From: Candidatus Bathyarchaeota archaeon
GTDB lineage: Archaea; Thermoproteota; Bathyarchaeia; Bathyarchaeales; Bathycorpusculaceae
DNA length: 64,000 bases
Assembly (NCBI GenBank): GCA_963811105.1
Contig: CAWEPZ010000009.1
Location: forward strand, 361,911-425,910
Direction: 5' to 3'
The position numbers and the translations under genes are program-made. Below are positions 213 to 21,062 of this stretch, piece by piece. The first letter of the stretch is position 1. Every line of letters starts with the position of its first letter. The notes below the pieces were generated by a model, which was not told the origin of the DNA, made no database searches, and saw only the letters and a list, made by a program, of their open reading frames with translations.

Positions 213-1985
213 ATGGATTACTTGGTCATAGCAGACGAATACGAAAAAATCGAGGCCACCACTAAACGTTTAGAAATGACCGATTTGTTGGTCGGCTTAC
301 TAAAAAATACGCCGACAGAGGTCATTTCGAAGGTTGTTTATTTAACTCAGGGAAAGCTCTACCCAGACTTCATGGGCATCGAAATGGGTATCGCTGAAAA
401 ACTTGCAATAAAAGCGCTTGCCCGAGCGTCAGGCCAAAGCGAAAGTGTAATTCAAACTGAACTACAAAAAAGCGGAGACATTGGGCAAACGTCAGAAAAA
501 CTTTTAGCTAAACGTAAACAATCGACTTTTTTCAGCCGAAAACTAACGGTGGAACATGTTTATGAGACACTGGATAAAATGGCCAAAACCTCAGGCTCAG
601 GCGCAGTCGACACCAAAATGGCGCTTCTTTGCAGCCTTTTAACCGACGCTTCGCCCAGAGAGGCAAAATGGATAATTCGTACCGTCACAAGCAATTTGCG
701 CCTAGGCGTTGCAGATATGACGGTGCTTGAAGCGTTGGCTATCGCGTACGGCGGCGGAAAACAATCACGCGAACTCATTGAACGGGCATACAACATCTCC
801 TCCGATTTAGGCAGAGTTGCAAACGTAGTTGTCGAGAAAGGCATAGACGGCATCAAGAATTTCAAAGTCATGGTTTTTGAACCTATTAGACCCATGCTTG
901 CAGAACGGTTAGCTTCACCCGAGGAGATTTTGGAAAAACTTGGCGGAAAATGCATAGCCGAATACAAATATGATGGAGAAAGAGTACAAGCGCATAAAAA
1001 AGACAACAAAGTCATCTTATTCTCTCGTCGCTTAGAAAACATTTCCAGCCAATACCCTGACGCGGTGGAATTAATTAAAGAAAAAATTGATGCAAAAGAA
1101 GCCATTCTGGAAGCAGAATGCGTCGCAATGGACTTGGAAACAGGAGATATGCGTCCATTTCAGGAATTGATGCACCGAAGACGCAAATACGGAGTTGAAG
1201 CAGCCATAGAGCAGTATCCCATTTCGCTCTTCCCATTTGACCTCCTCTATGCAGATGGCAAAGACTTTACCCTTGAGCCTCAACCTCGTAGACGAAAGGA
1301 ACTACAACAAATCGTAAAACAAACTGACCGAGTTACACCAGCTATTCAAAAGCTTGTCAATAACTCAAAGGAACTTGAAAACTTCTTTGAGGAAGCTATC
1401 GAGAAAGGCTGTGAAGGCTTAATGTGCAAATCAGTCGCCAAAGACTCATGTTACCAAGCCGGGAGCCGCGGTTGGCTTTGGATAAAATATAAGCGCGACT
1501 ATAAGAGCGAAATGACTGACACTGTGGATCTTGTGGTCGTTGGAGCTTTTCACGGCAGAGGCAAGCGCGTTGGAACCTACGGTGCCCTGCTTTTAGCAAC
1601 ATACAATAAAGAAAAAGACACATTTGAAACCGTAACAAAATGCGGCACTGGCTTCACAGACAAAGACCTAATACAGCTCAGAGATACGCTTGCCAAACAT
1701 GTCATTCCTCGCAAAAACAGCCGCGTTCAATCAATGCTTGAAGCAGATGTGTGGTTTGAACCCAGCGTGGTACTTGAGATTTTAGGAGCAGAAATCACCC
1801 TAAGCCCCATCCACATGTGCGCCATGGATTCAATACGCAAAGGCAGTGGCTTAGCAATCCGTTTTCCGCGTTTCACGGGCAAATACCGAACCGACAAAGC
1901 TCCGGAGGATGCAACTTCCTCAAATGAGATTCTTGAAATGTACCGAGGCCAACTAAAAAAAATAAGTGACACCACAGGAACATAG
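213..1985 (+). CDS. lig: ATP-dependent DNA ligase
   Basis: EYKYDGER adenylation motif, EGLMCK, WIKYKRDY, RFPRF; PIP-like KQSTFF in the N-terminal domain. Confidence 0.98.
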   Translation: MDYLVIADEYEKIEATTKRLEMTDLLVGLLKNTPTEVISKVVYLTQGKLYPDFMGIEMGIAEKLAIKALARASGQSESVIQTELQKSGDIGQTSEKLLAKRKQSTFFSRKLTVEHVYETLDKMAKTSGSGAVDTKMALLCSLLTDASPREAKWIIRTVTSNLRLGVADMTVLEALAIAYGGGKQSRELIERAYNISSDLGRVANVVVEKGIDGIKNFKVMVFEPIRPMLAERLASPEEILEKLGGKCIAEYKYDGERVQAHKKDNKVILFSRRLENISSQYPDAVELIKEKIDAKEAILEAECVAMDLETGDMRPFQELMHRRRKYGVEAAIEQYPISLFPFDLLYADGKDFTLEPQPRRRKELQQIVKQTDRVTPAIQKLVNNSKELENFFEEAIEKGCEGLMCKSVAKDSCYQAGSRGWLWIKYKRDYKSEMTDTVDLVVVGAFHGRGKRVGTYGALLLATYNKEKDTFETVTKCGTGFTDKDLIQLRDTLAKHVIPRKNSRVQSMLEADVWFEPSVVLEILGAEITLSPIHMCAMDSIRKGSGLAIRFPRFTGKYRTDKAPEDATSSNEILEMYRGQLKKISDTTGT

Positions 1986-2032
1986 GAAAAGCTAAAACTG
2001 ATAAGCAGCAAATCGCTAAATACACAATAGAC

Positions 2033-2650
2033 GTGACTGCTTTGGCTCAAGACACAGAAAAAATGAAATCACTTATAGCATTCAAAAAGCGCCTAGAGGA
2101 ACAACTAGAAAAACTAACTGCAGAAACTAAAGAGGTCCAAGCAGCTTTAGAAACGGTTAATGGTATTTTACTTGAAAAAGGCTTCAGACGCGGAGACATA
2201 AAAGAAGTTTCTGAAGCGCCTGTGCCTAAAGAGGTTGTTTTGCCAAAACAAGAGCCGCAAGCACCAAAACCAGTCATTTTGCATGCGGCTGAGGAGGAAA
2301 GCGTTATTCCGTTGAAAACAATGTCTGAAGAGCCACTGGCTTTGATTTGTTTTGATAAGCAAGGAATGCATGTGTTGCCCGATGAAAGCAAGAATTTTAG
2401 TGTCAACACACCGCCCTTCAGCAATTTTCTTGTAGAAAAAGTCTTCGCTAAAATGCAGGAAAAAGACACTGAACTGGTAAGAACAAAACAGCTAGCAGCA
2501 GACAAAATGTTCTCTTACAACATTGTCCGTGAAGGCGAACATATACGAGAAATAGTAATCCGCAACGTCGATGAGGAACGCCTCAAAGAACTCAAATCGA
2601 GTATCCGTTGGACTTTCGAAAAAATGTACGAAAAAATGAAAAGTTCCTAA
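2033..2650 (+). CDS. Hypothetical protein with N-terminal coiled coil
   Basis: 205 aa ORF co-oriented with lig; heptad-rich N-terminus; no recognised motif. Confidence 0.8.
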   Translation: MTALAQDTEKMKSLIAFKKRLEEQLEKLTAETKEVQAALETVNGILLEKGFRRGDIKEVSEAPVPKEVVLPKQEPQAPKPVILHAAEEESVIPLKTMSEEPLALICFDKQGMHVLPDESKNFSVNTPPFSNFLVEKVFAKMQEKDTELVRTKQLAADKMFSYNIVREGEHIREIVIRNVDEERLKELKSSIRWTFEKMYEKMKSS

Positions 2651-2651
2651 G

Positions 2652-2978
2652 CTAAACTGAATGTTTGCTTATAGTGTCAGCTATTCTGTTTTTTGGGCAC
2701 AAACCCACAAGCCTATCAGCTTCCACACCATTTTTAAAAACTATCATTGTAGGTATGCTGAAAACTTGGAAGCGCGATGCTGTCGCTGAATTCTCATCAA
2801 CATCCAACTTGCCAATTAGGACTTTACCACTATTCTCTTTGGCTAATTCCTCAATTGTTGGAGCCAAAGCTCTGCAGGGACCACACCAACTAGCCCAAAA
2901 ATCAACAAATACCAACTTGTTCTTCTTAATTGTCTCATCAAAATTAGCGTCTGTTAAATGAAACGGTTGAATACTCAT
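2652..2978 (-). CDS. trxA: Thioredoxin
   Basis: WASWCGPC active site, SIPT motif, 108 aa. Confidence 0.97.
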   Translation of the reverse strand: MSIQPFHLTDANFDETIKKNKLVFVDFWASWCGPCRALAPTIEELAKENSGKVLIGKLDVDENSATASRFQVFSIPTMIVFKNGVEADRLVGLCPKNRIADTISKHSV

Positions 2979-3104
2979 TTTTTTAACTCCTTCTAAACAC
3001 TTAGTAATTTAATTTACGTTGATATAAACCGTTCGTGAACGTTAAAAGCACCAGCCAAATTATCAGAATTTGGGGCATTGAATTAGTCAAGGAAGCAACA
3101 TATG

Positions 3105-4313
3105 CTAGAAACTTACAAAGTTAAACTTGATTATCGAAACTACGCCCCACAAATTAACTAGCAAACTAAGTATTATCAGAGCTTTTTCTGGCCAACCTAT
3201 GTTTTCTCTCATGCCTTTGGCCGTCAGCAAAATGAGGAATGGCGTAAAATCAAGGCTGAAGCGATAACCAAACTGGGTAAACCCTACTGTGCCATGAGTA
3301 ATTATTGGAGGGAGAATGCAAAGTACTGCTAGGGCTGAATATTTGCTTAGTTTATTCCAAGGACCTTTGAAAATGAAGATGAACGCTGGGGTGGTTAAGA
3401 AAAGGCCTAGTCCCATCCAGTTAGGCTCGATGTACGGGAAATGATTGAGGAAGATTGGGCCTTGCAGGAAAATTGCATATAGGTGTCGTGGGACGTAGGC
3501 GATGTTGAAGATCCCCTGCTGGAAAAATGGGTCCTGCTGTATTCCAGGTATCAGACCATAACCTAAATCCAGAATTGTTCCCCATCTGGCAACATTGTAC
3601 ATTAAATATAGAGAAACTGGTATCGCTAAGCCTATGAAAAAAATGGCTGCTTGCTTAAGTCTTGGTTTCCAAGCGTTATTTCGCTCGTATATCAGAAAAA
3701 GAAAAAATGGAAAAGCTAAAGCGGTAGGCAGCCGAGCCAACGTAGAAAAACCAAGCAATAAACCGACTAAAACATAACTTTTCTTATACAAAGCTACCAA
3801 AATGGCGGATGTTAGGAAAAGAACCGCAACGACTTCAGCTATATACCATGATGTACCAACTGACGCAATAAACCAGAAACAAGTGCCGAAGCCTAAAAGA
3901 AAGGACAGCCACAATGCTTTGTTTCCGTTTGAACCTGTTTTCTTAAGCATCAGCCAAGTTAGAGAAATGCATAAGCTGGCAAGCATTATTGACATGAGGC
4001 TTTCGTCGAAACCTGTTCCAAAAGCTGCGACAAACGGCATGAGAAGGATGGCGGGCATAGGCGGATAGACCACATAAAAGTTGCCGTTGCGAGGAACCAC
4101 TTCCTGCAGCGAGATTCCGCCGCCTGAAAGGCCTAGCCTCCCATGGAGAAAAGCGTCAGCTAAATACACGAAATGGTTCTGGCCTGGAGGTGGCCCTTTG
4201 GTGAGCACAAAAATGAAGAATGATATTAGCGCAATTAGAATGAACTTCTGAATAGTGCCCAAAGACGCTATTCTGTCAAATGCACGCTGCATAAGTGGCC
4301 TAACCTTGTTCAT
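3105..4313 (-). CDS. Polytopic membrane protein, probable GT-C-fold glycosyltransferase
   Basis: About 10 TM segments; early loop YLADAF...YPP and late GYRF motif reminiscent of GT-C enzymes. Confidence 0.6.
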   Translation of the reverse strand: MNKVRPLMQRAFDRIASLGTIQKFILIALISFFIFVLTKGPPPGQNHFVYLADAFLHGRLGLSGGGISLQEVVPRNGNFYVVYPPMPAILLMPFVAAFGTGFDESLMSIMLASLCISLTWLMLKKTGSNGNKALWLSFLLGFGTCFWFIASVGTSWYIAEVVAVLFLTSAILVALYKKSYVLVGLLLGFSTLARLPTALAFPFFLFLIYERNNAWKPRLKQAAIFFIGLAIPVSLYLMYNVARWGTILDLGYGLIPGIQQDPFFQQGIFNIAYVPRHLYAIFLQGPIFLNHFPYIEPNWMGLGLFLTTPAFIFIFKGPWNKLSKYSALAVLCILPPIITHGTVGFTQFGYRFSLDFTPFLILLTAKGMRENIGWPEKALIILSLLVNLWGVVSIIKFNFVSF

Positions 4314-12994: not shown

Positions 12995-14662
12995 TTATGC
13001 TTTCACTGTTGCTTTTTTAGCCATTTCTTCGGTTAGCATACCGACTAGTTGCCCGTTCTTAACTAAAGCTGCTCGCGTCATTCCTTTTTCTTTCATTAGT
13101 GACATAGCTGTCATCATTGATTCGTCAGCTTGAAGAATTAAAAGCGGTGTAAAGTTAAGGTCCTTTGCAAGTGTTTTCTTGAGGTCTCTTTGCTTCTCAG
13201 CTATCTCATTTAGAAGCTCTCGGTCATTGATTACTCCTATAGGCTTATGATTTTCAGTTATGAGAAGTGAAGTAACGCTATTTTGCATTAGTTTCTCCAC
13301 AAGCTTAGCTACAGTATCAGTTGTTGAAACCTCAACTGCAGGAAGCTTGGTGCCGGCTCGGTTGCTGATTTCTGAAATGTCTATACCTCTCTTCCAAATA
13401 TCATCAAGCATCTCACTTACTCTTTCGATTTGGCTAGGGTCTGTGGAATAGAATGTGTCAACTAAATAAAAGGCAGATTCACTTCCAAAATCACTTAATG
13501 GAGGCATTTTAAACATGAACAGGTGCTTATTGTCCACAAGCATCATTGTTAGATAACTGATTGGGACATGTTTAACTTCGTAACGTGACAAAAGTCTTTG
13601 AGCTGGTTCAAGGTTGTCCAAATCGATTGATGCCATTACTCTAATTCTTAAGCCTTTTTTGAAGTACTTCAATAGCGGATCATCTTCCGCAAGACGGTTT
13701 ATACTTTGGGATGTAGTGATTAACACTATGTCTTTTTTGGCACCTTCAAGAACCTTAGTTACTTTAGTCCACGCTTCCTCAACGCCTTTAATAACAATTG
13801 TTTCGCCGATGGGTATTCCACTCTTCAACTCATCTATTCGCCTGGAAGCGTCAACGCCAGTTTGCCACATTTGCTCAAAAAAGGCTTTGAGAACAGAAAT
13901 AAACATTTTATCGTTAATCCATAAGCCTTCATCTTCTAAATTCAAAACGGAAGCTTCGTTGCCAAAAGGTGCATACAAGATAGCCTCTTCTTCATCCTTA
14001 ATTAGAAAGCGAGGGAAAAACTTTGAACTCATAGTGACATGACGAAGTCTAAAGTTCATTTTCCCTTCTGAAACGCTCTCATCTATTCTTTCAACAACTT
14101 TCAGGTTTTCAGGAGAAATGTCGGTTATAACTTGAAATTGGATAGCCCTATTTTCAGAAGCTGTGGCCGCTGAATCAAAAATTCCCGCAATATCTTCTTG
14201 AACAAAACCCAAAGAAGTTGTTAAAACAATCACTTCCTTTTTCGATTCATCAATCATATTTAACATTTTTGAGTGAATCTTTTTCTTACCTGTAATAATT
14301 GAGAATTTGGCTACTGGATATTCTGATTCCGGAGCGCTTATAGATTGCCAAGCTGTTAAAAGGTCTTGTTTCTGATCGGTTAAGTTTTTAACCTCATTCT
14401 CTTTTGTATTAATGAAGGAGCCCACTAAGGCTTCAAAAGGAACAATAGTAAAACGTGTGGGCCTTTCGAGGGTTGCTTCAATAAAGCCTTTTTCTTGAAG
14501 TTTCTTGAAAGTCCGATAAGCTTGAACTCGCTCCATCTTAAGCCGTTTAGCCACGAAGCTAGTAGATTGAACACCACTTTTGGCAAGAAACATGTAAACT
14601 TGAATTTCCCGTTTTGAGAGACCAAGAATTTGTAAGAACTTGGTGACATCTTTCTCGCTCAT
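12995..14662 (-). CDS. TrmB-family regulator with tandem effector domains and C-terminal CBS pair
   Basis: TrmB wHTH N-terminus (LGLSKREIQVY...LQEKGFI), two PLD-like effector repeats, CBS motifs (PIGVINDRE, LVGMLTEE). Confidence 0.85.
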   Translation of the reverse strand: MSEKDVTKFLQILGLSKREIQVYMFLAKSGVQSTSFVAKRLKMERVQAYRTFKKLQEKGFIEATLERPTRFTIVPFEALVGSFINTKENEVKNLTDQKQDLLTAWQSISAPESEYPVAKFSIITGKKKIHSKMLNMIDESKKEVIVLTTSLGFVQEDIAGIFDSAATASENRAIQFQVITDISPENLKVVERIDESVSEGKMNFRLRHVTMSSKFFPRFLIKDEEEAILYAPFGNEASVLNLEDEGLWINDKMFISVLKAFFEQMWQTGVDASRRIDELKSGIPIGETIVIKGVEEAWTKVTKVLEGAKKDIVLITTSQSINRLAEDDPLLKYFKKGLRIRVMASIDLDNLEPAQRLLSRYEVKHVPISYLTMMLVDNKHLFMFKMPPLSDFGSESAFYLVDTFYSTDPSQIERVSEMLDDIWKRGIDISEISNRAGTKLPAVEVSTTDTVAKLVEKLMQNSVTSLLITENHKPIGVINDRELLNEIAEKQRDLKKTLAKDLNFTPLLILQADESMMTAMSLMKEKGMTRAALVKNGQLVGMLTEEMAKKATVKA

Positions 14663-17578: not shown

Positions 17579-17815
17579 TTTTAGAGCCCCAATAAACTAA
17601 CTATTGTCAACCTTTTAACTTAATAAACAGTTTTGTTGCCCTACGCATTAAAAACCGTATTTTCACATTAAGAAATTGAATGTAAGAGTATTCAAGGCGC
17701 AATTTGATTGCTAATCTTGCACAAAGGTTGACTTGACTTTGACATACGTAAGTTTAAAGTCTGCCGTTAAATTATAGGTAGAGCATCGATTTGGGAGCAC
17801 AGGGGAATAGGGTTT

Positions 17816-20032
17816 ATGGTAAATCAACCACCGCATCGCGCACGCGGCGTAAAAGTACTCAAAGCCGTCTCATCACCACTTAGGTTGCAAATCCTTAACC
17901 TGCTATTTGACAAAAGCGCTCTCTCTTACACTGAATTAATGAACCAACTCAAAATGAATCCAAGTCGAGATGCAGGTAGATTTGCGTACCACCTCAAATT
18001 TCTATTGAAGGCAGATTTAATTGAGGCAGACGTTGAAGCAAAAAAATATTATTTAACTGACCTTGGCAAAATGGTTCTTGATGTCGCCGACCGCGTGGAG
18101 AAGAAAGCGGTTAAACCAAGAGGAATGCTTGTTCGTACATCTCATCTGACACTGGAAGAGTTTGATGCAAACAAAATAGCAAATTCACTGATAAAAGAAG
18201 CAAAGGTGCCAGTTGAGTTAGCTCAGAAAGCAGCGAAAGAAGCAGAAAAACGTTTAGTTAAATCAAAAACAAAGTATCTTACGGCTTCGTTAATCAGGGA
18301 AGTTGTGAATGGCATTTTGGTTGAAAAGGGCTATGAAGATTACCGTCATAAACTCACACGCGTCGGAATGCCCATTCATGAGGTAACTGCTTCAATAGAA
18401 TCAAAAGACACACCTGTTGATTCATCAGCTTTAATTACAAAAGCAGGTCAATCCGTCCTTGGCGAGTACACGTTGCTTAATATTTTCCCAAGAGACATAG
18501 CCGACGCGCACCTCTCAGGCGCCATCCACATTAATGATTTAGGCACATGGATACTAAAACCCAACGAAGTTAGCCACGACCTCCGATTCTTTTTCAGAAA
18601 TGGACTCAAACTTGACAATCCCTTCCAAACTTCAATGGATCCACCTGACAACCTTGAATCAGCCTTAGCGATCGCCCTTAACATTATTCTGCACACCAAC
18701 AAAGAAACAAACAAAATGCAAACATGTAGCTACTTCAATGTTTTTCTATCTCCATTTGCAAAAGACGTTGACACCTCAAAAATAAAAGAGAATATGCGTT
18801 TGTTCATTTTAAACCTGAACCAACAAGCTGAAGCTACATTAGGACTTGAGCTCACAATTCCGAAATTAATGGCGGAGCAAGAAGCAACCGGTCCAAAAGG
18901 AAAAATTAGCGGTAAATACAGTGACTTTTCCCAAGAGATCCAACTCTTAGCATCTGTCATTCTTGAAGTTTACGCGGAAGAGAATGCCAAAAAGCCATTG
19001 CTTGGCCCGAAATTAGTTATAAGAATTAACAAGGATTCGTTTACAGATGAAAAAGCTAAAATTGCTCTCCTAAAAGCACATGGCTTGGCTGCGGAAAAAG
19101 GAATAATACACTTCGCAAACACCGCAAACAAAGATACAGAAAACGCGGTTTTTTCTGCTTCGGGAGTTAAGCTTGCTCCTGACGTAATTGGGGACTGGGA
19201 AACCGACACCCTACGCACTGGCTGTCTTGGTTGTGTAACTATTAATCTGCCGAGAATCACTCAGGAAAGTGAGAAAGACAAGAACAAATTTTTTGATCTA
19301 GTGAGAGAACGCTTTGAATTATCGGCAAGGGCTTTAGGAATAAAAAGCAACGCGTTAAAACAATTCGGGAAAAACTCCTTGCCCTTTCTACTAAAAAACG
19401 GTAATGGAGACGTATATTTCAGGCTAGAAAATAGTTCACGCATAATTAATTTAGCTGGGTTTCGAGAAGCTATTGAGGCTTTCACAGAAAAAAGCATAGA
19501 TTCTGAGGAAAGCCGCAAGTTTGCCGAAGAAATCGTCCAAAATATTTTGGCATTCAAACAAAAAATTGGCAGAAAACATGGAAAACGACTCTACGCTGTT
19601 ATGCTAAGTAACCCGGATGCTTCTGAGCGCCTTGCTCAGTTGGATATTGATAGGTTTGGCATAGCAAAAGTGAAGTATTCTGGAACAAGAGAAAAACCTT
19701 ACTATTCAACCGCTAAAAGATTCCAAGTTAAGGCTGGCGAACCCCTCAGCATACCCCCTGAAATAGTGGAGACTGCACAGAAAATGAAGGGTTTAAACGC
19801 GGGCGGCAGTTTCTGTATCCTTGATTTGGGAGATACCCAATTTAAGCCTGAACCTCTGATGGAGTTAACCCGACACCTAATTGAGAACCCAATCTTCGAA
19901 TTCTTCACTTACAACCGCATAATCAGTTTCTGCGATAACTGCAAAAACAGCTGGTTTGGAACGCTTCATAAATGCCCATCTTGTGGGTCCATGAGCAAAC
20001 TCGCAACGTTTGATCGCTTTGCATCCAACTAA
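17816..20032 (+). CDS. wHTH + ATP-cone + degenerate class III ribonucleotide reductase (NrdD-like) fusion
   Basis: ArsR-like wHTH (aa ~10-95), ATP cone (FDANKIANSL...LIREVV), NrdD-like AHLSGAIHINDL and TINLPRI, C-terminal CxxC...CxxC. No RxxGY glycyl-radical motif. Confidence 0.85.
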   Translation: MVNQPPHRARGVKVLKAVSSPLRLQILNLLFDKSALSYTELMNQLKMNPSRDAGRFAYHLKFLLKADLIEADVEAKKYYLTDLGKMVLDVADRVEKKAVKPRGMLVRTSHLTLEEFDANKIANSLIKEAKVPVELAQKAAKEAEKRLVKSKTKYLTASLIREVVNGILVEKGYEDYRHKLTRVGMPIHEVTASIESKDTPVDSSALITKAGQSVLGEYTLLNIFPRDIADAHLSGAIHINDLGTWILKPNEVSHDLRFFFRNGLKLDNPFQTSMDPPDNLESALAIALNIILHTNKETNKMQTCSYFNVFLSPFAKDVDTSKIKENMRLFILNLNQQAEATLGLELTIPKLMAEQEATGPKGKISGKYSDFSQEIQLLASVILEVYAEENAKKPLLGPKLVIRINKDSFTDEKAKIALLKAHGLAAEKGIIHFANTANKDTENAVFSASGVKLAPDVIGDWETDTLRTGCLGCVTINLPRITQESEKDKNKFFDLVRERFELSARALGIKSNALKQFGKNSLPFLLKNGNGDVYFRLENSSRIINLAGFREAIEAFTEKSIDSEESRKFAEEIVQNILAFKQKIGRKHGKRLYAVMLSNPDASERLAQLDIDRFGIAKVKYSGTREKPYYSTAKRFQVKAGEPLSIPPEIVETAQKMKGLNAGGSFCILDLGDTQFKPEPLMELTRHLIENPIFEFFTYNRIISFCDNCKNSWFGTLHKCPSCGSMSKLATFDRFASN

Positions 20033-20036
20033 AAGC

Positions 20037-21062
<1,026 letters not shown>

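Follow-up and report, generated by a model that had tools for sequence, protein, structure and literature searches.

NrdR represses ribonucleotide reductase (RNR) operons in a nucleotide-dependent manner (PMC12176259, PMC9110341) and has been described as rare in archaea (PMC12176259). In a related design, regulators are built from the enzymes of the pathway that they serve, as in NrtR, where a Nudix-like effector domain is fused to a (winged) helix-turn-helix (PMC2330246). Here we describe a gene at positions 17816..20032 of a 64,000-nucleotide stretch of DNA from a Candidatus Bathyarchaeota archaeon (contig CAWEPZ010000009.1; hereafter the window), whose product joins a winged helix-turn-helix (wHTH) and an ATP-cone to the barrel and zinc ribbon of a class III RNR (NrdD) that has lost its catalytic elements. 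We consider it probable that this protein, which descends from a class III RNR and has no catalytic function, acts as a dimeric, nucleotide-responsive transcription factor. Domain architecture, catalytic losses, conservation, a single origin on the sampled tree and synteny are shown below, and we infer that the protein binds DNA, which nucleotide is its effector and which way it regulates. Because in related archaea this dead RNR with its DNA-binding domain stands just before genuine reductase genes, it probably serves as a switch that senses nucleotides and controls the making of DNA precursors.

Domain architecture and catalytic loss

The gene, its domains and its altered catalytic motifs are located in the window as follows.

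17816..20032, + strand: whole open reading frame (ORF), 738 amino acids plus stop, with wHTH, ATP-cone, dead NrdD-like barrel and zinc ribbon
17855..18109, + strand: wHTH domain, residues 14-98 (Pfam DUF7347 and HTH_5)
17966-18007, + strand: putative recognition-helix region of the wHTH, RDAGRFAYHLKFLL, residues 51-64
18125..18355, + strand: ATP-cone, residues 104-180 (Pfam ATP-cone)
18434..19915, + strand: NrdD-like alpha/beta barrel, residues 207-700 (Pfam NRDD, structure match to class III RNRs)
18524..18538, + strand: degenerate HxHD motif, I-H-I-N-D, residues 237-241
18557..18580, + strand: KPNEVSHD, site of the lost first-strand active-site Cys, residues 248-255
18812..18841, + strand: NLNQQAEATL, deleted loop 2, residues 333-342
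19151..19174, + strand: FSASGVKL, former finger loop without the thiyl-radical Cys, residues 446-453
19931..19984, + strand: Cys4 zinc ribbon (C706, C709, C720, C723), aligning to the ribbon of active NrdDs
20015..20032, + strand: vestigial glycyl-radical loop, R-F-A-S-N followed by the stop codon (alignment to active NrdDs)

The catalytic motifs were compared with those of the active NrdD encoded elsewhere in the same genome (24% identity) and of 15 other active NrdDs. The finger loop, which reads M-C-C-R or M-G-C-R in the active enzymes and carries the catalytic Cys as its third residue (preprint 10.1101/2022.04.23.489257), aligned with FSASGVKL, and no Cys was present between residues 305 and 469. 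Loop 2, which reads the substrate base in the T. maritima NrdD (PMC4493059), has the sequence ARGGQxVFS in 15 of the 16 aligned active NrdDs and TRVGFQTPF in the genome's own enzyme; this motif was absent from the protein, and the stretch was shortened and variable in all the wHTH-bearing members aligned. At the C-terminus, RFASN aligned with the glycyl-radical loop of active NrdDs, gap-free in the case of the genome's own enzyme, which reads R-V-V-G-Y where the others have R-[IV]-T-G-Y; Ser takes the place of the radical Gly, and the stop codon comes one residue after it. Orthologues of the same genus end in RF[AT]S[NT], and deeper relatives have a longer tail, YxRxx[A/S/N]xYxPLxxW, likewise without Gly.

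Two further active-site elements were altered. On the first barrel strand, RPfCQ (RP-[FN]C-Q) of active NrdDs is replaced by KPNEV, and no wHTH-bearing member in the printed alignment had a Cys at this position. The HxHD motif, which holds the substrate triphosphate in NrdD (PMC11226230), changes from HIHD to H-I-N-D, and columns 240 and 241 were variable across the family. The NxN flap motif described in the same source (PMC11226230) was not seen on inspection of residues 190-215 by eye. The NLPR motif and some barrel residues were kept in the wHTH-bearing family.

The same catalytic losses were present in every wHTH-bearing relative examined, a sharing that is not due to chance. In an alignment of 117 rows, 83 had a wHTH and neither the Cys nor the RxxGY motif, and 13 had both catalytic motifs and no wHTH. 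Three rows (P0181, P0190 and P0199) were flagged with all three features; since their matches to the query start only at residue 66, 95 or 102, they do not have the wHTH. Seven wHTH rows contained a stray Cys near the loop and no Gly motif, and two wHTH-bearing sequences (P0149 and P0164) had RxxGY-like tails (RAEGY and RRLGY), which could be retention or chance, yet no finger-loop Cys. No wHTH-bearing sequence keeps both the Cys and the Gly motif. The original prediction had proposed, from the letters of this one stretch, that the thiyl Cys was replaced, the specificity loop deleted and the RxxGY loop missing; alignment to active NrdDs confirmed each of these losses and added those of the first strand and the HxHD motif, and the view of the protein as a pseudo-enzyme is strongly supported, with all catalytic elements lost across the family and the gene kept full-length in 40 of 41 related genomes.

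The order of domains first proposed (wHTH, ATP-cone, NrdD-like barrel, zinc finger) agreed with the Pfam matches and with the zinc-ribbon alignment. Residues 14-88 scored 31 bits with DUF7347 (cut-off 27.6) and 27.5 bits with HTH_5 (cut-off 22), and the NCBIfam model HTH_metalloreg (NF033788) scored 32.3 bits, far under its cut-off of 55; no Cys was present in residues 1-100. The wHTH is thus ArsR-type by Pfam score and falls outside the metalloregulator subfamily as NCBIfam defines it. The ATP-cone matched PF03477 at residues 105-177 (30.1 bits, cut-off 25.8), and NRDD (PF13597) matched residues 207-733 with 221.8 bits (cut-off 26.2), spanning profile positions 13-537 of 562. Because the match stops at position 537, the last 25 positions (538-562), which form the glycyl-radical end, are missing. 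The NCBIfam equivalog model for NrdD, TIGR02487, gave 227.4 bits, under its cut-off of 326.35. The four ribbon Cys (706, 709, 720 and 723) were unchanged across 56 family members, and the Pfam model Zn_ribbon_NrdR had no match in the protein.

An AlphaFold2 model built with a 56-sequence family alignment as input had a predicted local distance difference test score (pLDDT) of 88.4 and a predicted TM-score (pTM) of 0.79, and contained the wHTH as three helices followed by a two-strand beta-hairpin wing (residues 21-80). The top Foldseek matches to the model were all class III RNRs, with E values from 3e-25 to 1e-18 and target-normalised TM-scores of 0.6-0.76; those for T. maritima and phage T4 NrdD were 0.72-0.76, with the maximum for phage T4. 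A homodimer of residues 205-700 was predicted with a score of 0.69, against 0.00 for the best of three controls; in the benchmark of this score, the mark was reached by 20 of 30 solved one-chain pairs and by 1 of 23 solved single chains. Contact agreement among the three dimer runs was at least 89% and the pLDDT of the partner at least 88, and the predicted interface consisted of helices 280-293 and 320-337, which are the NrdD-type helices A and B. As NrdD dimers have already been solved, this pass may merely mirror the likeness to NrdD.

Conservation was scored by region on the 56-sequence alignment, counting columns conserved in at least 90% of members. The ATP-cone was the best conserved region (mean frequency of the commonest residue 0.72; 26 of 77 columns), followed by the wHTH (mean 0.57; 12 of 85 columns). 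The former active site was the least conserved part, with none of the 26 columns of the finger loop (residues 441-466) and 1 of the 110 columns of the loop-2 region above the threshold. Across nine families of the order the N-terminal 260 residues had a mean column identity of 74%, compared with 43-46% for whole proteins. In nine sequences from different families, 12 of the 14 residues of R51-L64 (RDAGRFAYHLKFLL) were invariant, R55 and F62 being the exceptions, and L30, H59, Y78 and G84 of the wHTH were invariant in the 56 family members. In the P. copri NrdD the cone contacts nucleotides through basic residues and an aromatic residue at both cone ends (PMC11226230). The pseudo-enzyme keeps the tail Y-R-H-K..R (residues 176-182), of which Y-R-H..R is invariant, and its cone starts with V-R-T-S (residues 106-109) where canonical cones have K-R; since a clade of active NrdDs has the same V-R-T-S start, this is inherited and is no sign of decay. 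The pattern of conservation, with purifying selection on the cone and the wHTH, fits a sensor (the cone) and an output domain (the wHTH) carried on a scaffold (the barrel).

Family, origin and gene neighbourhood

An intact full-length copy was found in 40 of 41 related genomes, covering 12 families and 16 genera of the order, and the fusion is accordingly a conserved one. Copies from the same genus were 62-82% identical and those from most other families 42-46%, the lowest value being 38%. Matches were found in 39 other genomes, and in 37 of these they had no internal stops. One related genome had a second copy with several stop codons next to an intact one (G004:C4:3071-5283), and in another the sole copy was split by stops (G023:C15:47582-49776). 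A word-index search returned, among the best 120 clusters listed, proteins of 73-100% identity and mostly 734-751 amino acids, a few being 697-708 or up to 773 amino acids; nearly all carried the identical four Pfam domains, and a few had no match to the HTH models. An exhaustive search of representatives gave 328 clusters at E < 1e-30; in dozens of them, at 30-45% identity, the match starts in the wHTH of the query and extends through to its zinc ribbon. Across 301 genomes of the class, the best match was below 1e-99 in 195 and between 1e-98 and 1e-60 in nine; 63 had matches at the level of ordinary NrdDs only (1e-21 to 1e-37), and 34 had none.

The wHTH-bearing family has a single origin on the sampled tree. 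In a FastTree analysis of the barrel columns, the 83 wHTH forms and 6 N-terminally cut forms made up one clade without any active NrdD (SH-like support 90, a value left unstarred). A quick IQ-TREE search under LG+C20 PMSF, using 51 of the 117 rows (12 active, 9 dead without a wHTH and 30 with a wHTH; 66 left out), separated all 30 wHTH rows from the 12 active NrdDs by a branch with SH-aLRT 100. At least two more lineages of NrdD homologues had no finger-loop Cys, no RxxGY and no wHTH (P0192, P0205, P0237, P0260 and P0269, and P0226, P0235, P0236 and P0261); their matches to the query begin only around residue 95-105, at the start of the ATP-cone. As they branch among active NrdDs, NrdD catalysis has seemingly been lost more than once.

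By the source names of cluster members (Candidatus Bathyarchaeia, Nitrososphaerales, Nitrososphaeraceae and Thaumarchaeota, and also Candidatus Jordarchaeia / Freyarchaeota, Candidatus Atabeyarchaeum and Candidatus Thorarchaeota), the family occurs in Asgard archaea as well as in Bathyarchaeia and Nitrososphaeria. When species genomes were scanned for the Nitrososphaeria branch, at least 573 stretches proved to encode relatives; among the 80 best, the titles, all of metagenome-assembled genomes, name Nitrososphaerales, Nitrosopumilales, Nitrosopumilaceae, Ca. Nitrosomirales, Ca. Gagatemarchaeum and Ca. Methylarchaceae, some reading just 'archaeon' and one 'bacterium'. A protein atlas listed clusters with three of the domains in Bathyarchaeota, Nitrososphaerota and Promethearchaeota, which we take as leads only. 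One protein (P0294, in the cluster of P0134) was labelled 'Candidatus Dormibacteraeota bacterium' and one locus (L071) 'bacterium', the other named members being archaeal; these labels are probably binning or labelling errors. In the source annotations the members are called 'anaerobic ribonucleoside-triphosphate reductase', and some from Nitrososphaerota 'ArsR family transcriptional regulator'.

In relatives, the gene stands immediately before a reductase gene, and pyrB usually comes after. In families other than that of the window, an active-type NrdD (finger loop QCC[RA], tail R[IV]TGY) was next on the same strand in 8 of 12 loci, 170-570 nt on, with pyrB and pyrI further on. At the level of the class, an RNR gene was directly downstream in 5 of 20 loci (four NrdD, one class I/II-type), pyrB was within three ORFs in 10 and some nucleotide-metabolism gene in 15; the neighbours included RNR, pyrB/pyrI, dCMP deaminase, purM-like/purF-like genes, nucleoside phosphorylase, a nucleoside ABC transporter and DeoC. 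Among 80 metagenome loci, 40 had at least 2.5 kb of downstream DNA, and in these an RNR gene lay within the next two same-strand ORFs in 23, pyrB within three ORFs in 19, and one or the other in 28. An ORF of about 100 amino acids for a CxxC redoxin (NrdH/glutaredoxin-like) was observed between the pseudo-enzyme gene and the active nrdD at L014-L017 and in 18 metagenome loci (e.g. L139-L165); at L025 and L040 there is instead a thioredoxin-like ORF downstream of nrdD.

In Nitrososphaeria the next same-strand gene encoded a class I/II-type RNR in 63 of the 66 loci with enough downstream DNA. All 12 of those checked with Pfam had Ribonuc_red_lgN and lgC, together with TSCPD or an ATP-cone, and all 63 matched these by BLAST; in the other three loci, which had at least 4 kb of downstream DNA, no long ORF was found downstream. 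In 7 of the 12 Pfam-checked loci, pyrB was next in convergent orientation. The association with RNR thus outlasts a change of RNR class, being with class III in Bathyarchaeia and class I/II-type in Nitrososphaeria. In each of five Nitrososphaeria genomes checked, the family gene was the sole NRDD match (58-97 bits), and in none of the five did an NrdG2 match reach its cut-off, which speaks against a glycyl-radical function there. One of the class I/II-type RNRs carries an intein (Intein_splicing and LAGLIDADG_3; L045:8279-11740), and the RNR ORFs of 1110-1486 amino acids at L046, L070, L082, L088, L112 and L119 may hold inteins as well.

In the window itself, the convergent neighbour that the original prediction had pointed out was indeed pyrB, separated from the gene by 4 nt, and pyrB directly followed the gene in convergent orientation in all 10 loci of the genus; at L005 it was in fragments. 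The RNR neighbour has been lost in this genome and only pyrB remains, and the retention of the gene in the whole genus argues for a role beyond the lost neighbour. The genome has an intact RNR together with NrdG, in a canonical nrdR-nrdD-nrdG operon on another contig (L001, G000:C11:581393-586120). Its NrdR consists of Zn_ribbon_NrdR and an ATP-cone, its NrdG-like protein is a radical SAM activase, and its NrdD matched PF13597 over the full profile (657 bits) with both MCCR and RVVGY present. Since this NrdD is unlike those found beside the pseudo-enzyme in other lineages, it suggests replacement by transfer. No class I/II RNR was detected in the genome with Pfam PF02867 (assembly 96.65% complete). 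Further upstream in the window, positions 12995-14662 (- strand) encode a second regulator of the sensor type, a 555-amino-acid protein with a TrmB wHTH, a TrmB regulator domain and CBS domains, which is separated from the pseudo-enzyme gene by those for RNase HII, fibrillarin and Nop5/56.

20037..20975, - strand, window: pyrB, aspartate carbamoyltransferase catalytic chain (Pfam OTCace_N and OTCace)
701-1147, locus L001: nrdR (Pfam domains)
1144-3270, locus L001: nrdD (Pfam domains)
3282-3959, locus L001: nrdG (Pfam domains)

Candidate operators, proposed mechanism and alternatives

Upstream of the gene, a single block was alignable in the 10 orthologues of the genus.

17746..17797, + strand: promoter and leader block, conserved
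17750-17759, + strand: TATA-like AAGTTTAAAG; after these positions comes ATTATAGGTAGAGC
17793-17797, + strand: GGGAG, Shine-Dalgarno-like run at the end of the block

Most of 35 aligned metagenome loci had a related consensus, TaCT.TAATTTTTTAAACTAAAc, at 41-60 nt upstream of the start codon, and exact and one-mismatch word searches for a second copy of the block in the genome gave nothing meaningful. Before the RNR genes of Nitrososphaeria, the top 5-mer was GTCAA/TTGAC, present in 56 of 58 intergenic regions versus 79 of 227 others, at 9.6 versus 2.0 sites per kb; TTGAC-N5-GTCAA occurred 10 times in the 58 regions and not at all in the 227. The half-sites are repeated, in many cases with this spacing, and form clusters roughly 60-80 and 120-160 nt upstream of the start of the RNR gene (L045-L124). 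Genome-wide, the palindrome TTGACN5GTCAA had 0-3 sites in each of five genomes and was at the locus only in one of them (G329). In Bathyarchaeia-like loci another element of about 40 nt, TtATACAgAATTTTAaAcaAtTt.tTCTAAaAAatTtAA, precedes nrdH/nrdD in 31 of 38 cases (L128-L203); in 7 of the 31 this element, also written TtATACAgAATTTTAaAcaAtTt.tTCTAA... or, in short form, TtATACAgAATTTTAaAc...TTCTAA, stands in the opposite orientation, and it was additionally present at L013 and L018-L020. The gene's own promoter, which is strongly conserved too, and the RNR promoter have the TATA core alone in common and differ in their flanks, TACA-N1-4-TTTTAWA being found in 0 of 67 own promoters versus 31 of 38 RNR-side regions. 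An AGAC...GTCT inverted repeat after the TATA box, seen by eye in 3 of 31 printed promoters, was dropped as a candidate. These elements are leads on candidate operators, not proof.

In the mechanism that we propose, the N-terminal wHTH would bind DNA at the RNR promoter and probably also at the gene's own promoter, two copies of it being presented to the DNA by a dimer formed through the NrdD-type helices. The ATP-cone would sense adenine nucleotides such as ATP and dATP, and the effector-site helices retained at the dimer interface may share in sensing. ATP or dATP on the cone would then alter DNA binding or the oligomeric state, as in NrdR, with the dead barrel and the zinc ribbon serving as a dimerisation scaffold that couples sensing to DNA binding. 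The ancestral target would be the RNR gene directly downstream, and probably the own promoter and the adjoining pyrBI as well; in the present genome, the own promoter and pyrB are the candidate targets. A broader proposal, to which we give even credence, is that the missing archaeal regulator of both ribonucleotide reduction and pyrimidine synthesis is a single family of ancient origin, placed by source names in Bathyarchaeia, Nitrososphaeria (with lineages named Nitrosopumilaceae) and Asgard groups, derived from a class III RNR by loss of all chemistry and gain of a wHTH, convergent with NrdR, and holding its post before the RNR gene after the swap from class III to class I/II-type. The earlier suggestion of an NrdR-like regulator gains from the RNR genes of two classes downstream and from the cone and recognition helix being best conserved; for this genome, with a canonical NrdR of its own, the label 'archaeal analogue of NrdR' has to be qualified.

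Several observations weigh against this regulatory role. Here the pseudo-enzyme has no adjoining RNR gene, and it is a canonical NrdR that fronts nrdD-nrdG. The remaining neighbour, pyrB, is convergent, a layout untypical for a regulator and its target, and in two Jordarchaeia-like loci (L125 and L135) neither an RNR gene nor pyrB was found within three ORFs. The gene is dispensable, as one large family of the class had a strong match in none of its 71 genomes. The ATP-cone is divergent, scoring 30 bits versus 87 for that of the genome's active NrdD and 76 for that of its NrdR, and the canonical K-R pair that contacts phosphates (PMC11226230) reads T-S in the pseudo-enzyme. As for the candidate operators, none could be defined in the Bathyarchaeia clade: TTGAC was rejected as a common operator since it was unenriched in Bathyarchaeia (2.35 and 1.97 versus 2.29 sites per kb), and the four TTGAC sites in 17579-17815 of the window were unconserved, nine promoters of the genus having 0-1 sites. 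In the window's genome, the best weight-matrix score for the nrdH/nrdD element was 12.9, compared with a training minimum of 22.2. Fisher p-values overstate the promoter signal because the counted loci are kin, and the conserved intergenic elements could be the sites of another factor or core promoter elements.

Four other functions have to be weighed against a nucleotide-responsive transcription factor, together with the absence of any function. A DNA-binding regulator might answer a non-nucleotide signal, redox or metal, through the Cys4 ribbon or an ArsR-type site, with cone and barrel merely structural. The wHTH does score best against ArsR-type models (HTH_5 and HTH_metalloreg), the ribbon Cys are invariant and the cone is without the canonical K-R pair; however, the cone is the most conserved part of the protein, unlike structural filler, HTH_metalloreg stays well below its cut-off, the ribbon is inherited unaltered from active NrdDs and the neighbours belong to nucleotide metabolism, not to metal or redox functions, and we regard such a signal as improbable. 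Pseudo-enzymes often regulate their active paralogues, and adjacency to RNR genes and the NrdD-type dimer interface kept in the model would suit a protein-level partner of RNR, a decoy or regulatory subunit that uses the wHTH for protein contacts. The neighbour in Nitrososphaeria is nevertheless of class I/II-type, with no NrdD there to pair with, the active NrdD of the present genome is on another contig and just 24% identical, and a near-invariant putative recognition helix is what would be expected for a conserved DNA target; a partner of this kind seems unlikely to us. Much the same holds for a sensor of the dNTP pool that controls replication initiation, chromatin or repair, with synteny reflecting shared timing. 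Its attraction is that the gene persists in the genus without an adjoining RNR and beside a canonical NrdR, and that 5 of the 20 class-level loci have no nucleotide-metabolism neighbour, but the slot upstream of RNR is kept across two classes, Bathyarchaeia and Nitrososphaeria, and no replication or repair genes recurred in the neighbourhoods examined, which leaves it little credit.

Least plausible among the functional alternatives, and in our judgement very unlikely, is an enzyme with a new nucleotide chemistry, e.g. with the radical on a Ser or Ala that replaces the Gly. Homologues of glycyl radical enzymes with Ala, Ser or Thr in place of Gly form radicals (PMC11528403), deep members of the present family have Ala, Ser or Asn at this position, and NLPR has been preserved together with some residues of the barrel. 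There is, on the other hand, no thiyl Cys to receive a radical, conservation is lowest in the former active site, the stop one residue after the Ser means that the radical domain cannot fold in this clade, and no NrdG-type activase was found in the five Nitrososphaeria genomes; the aminoacyl radical enzymes, moreover, belong to the pyruvate formate-lyase branch, with NrdD only as an outgroup (PMC11528403). A truncated or decaying nrdD allele with an accidental N-terminal fusion would account for the C-terminal end missing relative to NrdD and for the stop-broken copies in two related genomes; it is refuted, to a degree that leaves it next to no likelihood, by the domain conservation among the best 120 clusters, the absence of stops in 37 of 39 genomes and the old monophyletic lineage.

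Relation to known systems

No description of a catalytically dead or HTH-fused NrdD was found in searches of full-text literature, supplements and subscription journals being outside their coverage; one Tn7 preprint that mentions nrdD and HTH was unrelated. Enzyme-derived sensor domains and NrdR are known kinds of regulator, and to judge from these searches the use of an RNR scaffold in this way is new. If the proposed function is correct, the family would provide the first case of a transcription factor derived from RNR, one that is convergent with bacterial NrdR, and an essential enzyme would have been recycled as the sensor that governs the pathway it came from, and retained while the RNR class changed. 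Archaeal transcriptional control of dNTP supply is largely obscure, and the family offers a concrete candidate regulator that occurs widely among Bathyarchaeia and Nitrososphaeria and is also found in Asgard lineages. There is also a practical side: lineages of the Nitrosopumilaceae type are aerobic ammonia oxidisers, and the database label 'anaerobic ribonucleoside-triphosphate reductase' would falsely credit such aerobes with a class III RNR, just as metabolic reconstructions that count family members as class III RNR would infer anaerobic dNTP synthesis wrongly.

With NrdD (compared in its structures from phage T4, T. maritima, P. copri and S. thermophilus) the pseudo-enzyme is homologous in sequence and fold, and it keeps the ATP-cone, the Cys4 ribbon, NLPR and the predicted dimer of A and B helices. 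It differs from NrdD in having no thiyl Cys, no second Cys, no radical Gly or radical domain, no loop 2 and no intact HxHD, and in that it has an extra wHTH, scores under the equivalog cut-off and persists in genomes where no NrdG reached the cut-off. Inactive RNR homologues with another role are known from beta-herpesviruses, whose M45/UL45 proteins descend from the class I large subunit; these differ in RNR class, are viral, have no DNA-binding domain and are directed at host proteins. The aminoacyl radical enzymes share with the present family a small residue in place of the radical Gly (Ser here, Ala, Ser or Asn in deeper members), whereas they belong to the pyruvate formate-lyase branch and have partner activases (PMC11528403); the present family is without a thiyl Cys, and in this clade the radical domain is gone as well.

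With NrdR the pseudo-enzyme shares the combination of a putative DNA-binding module with an ATP-cone and, in relatives, a position beside RNR genes, but homology is confined to the ATP-cone: putative DNA binding is by the wHTH and not by the NrdR zinc ribbon, and a dead enzyme barrel of about 500 residues is carried in addition. B. subtilis PurR, which is phosphoribosyltransferase-like, and the archaeal RbkR/ThiR are, like NrtR, regulators derived from enzymes. The principle of these enzyme-derived sensors on a (w)HTH is the same, in that the catalytic scaffold of a pathway is reused as a ligand sensor; in contrast to NrtR-type regulators, the scaffold here is an RNR, and the likely sensor is the accessory ATP-cone rather than the substrate pocket.

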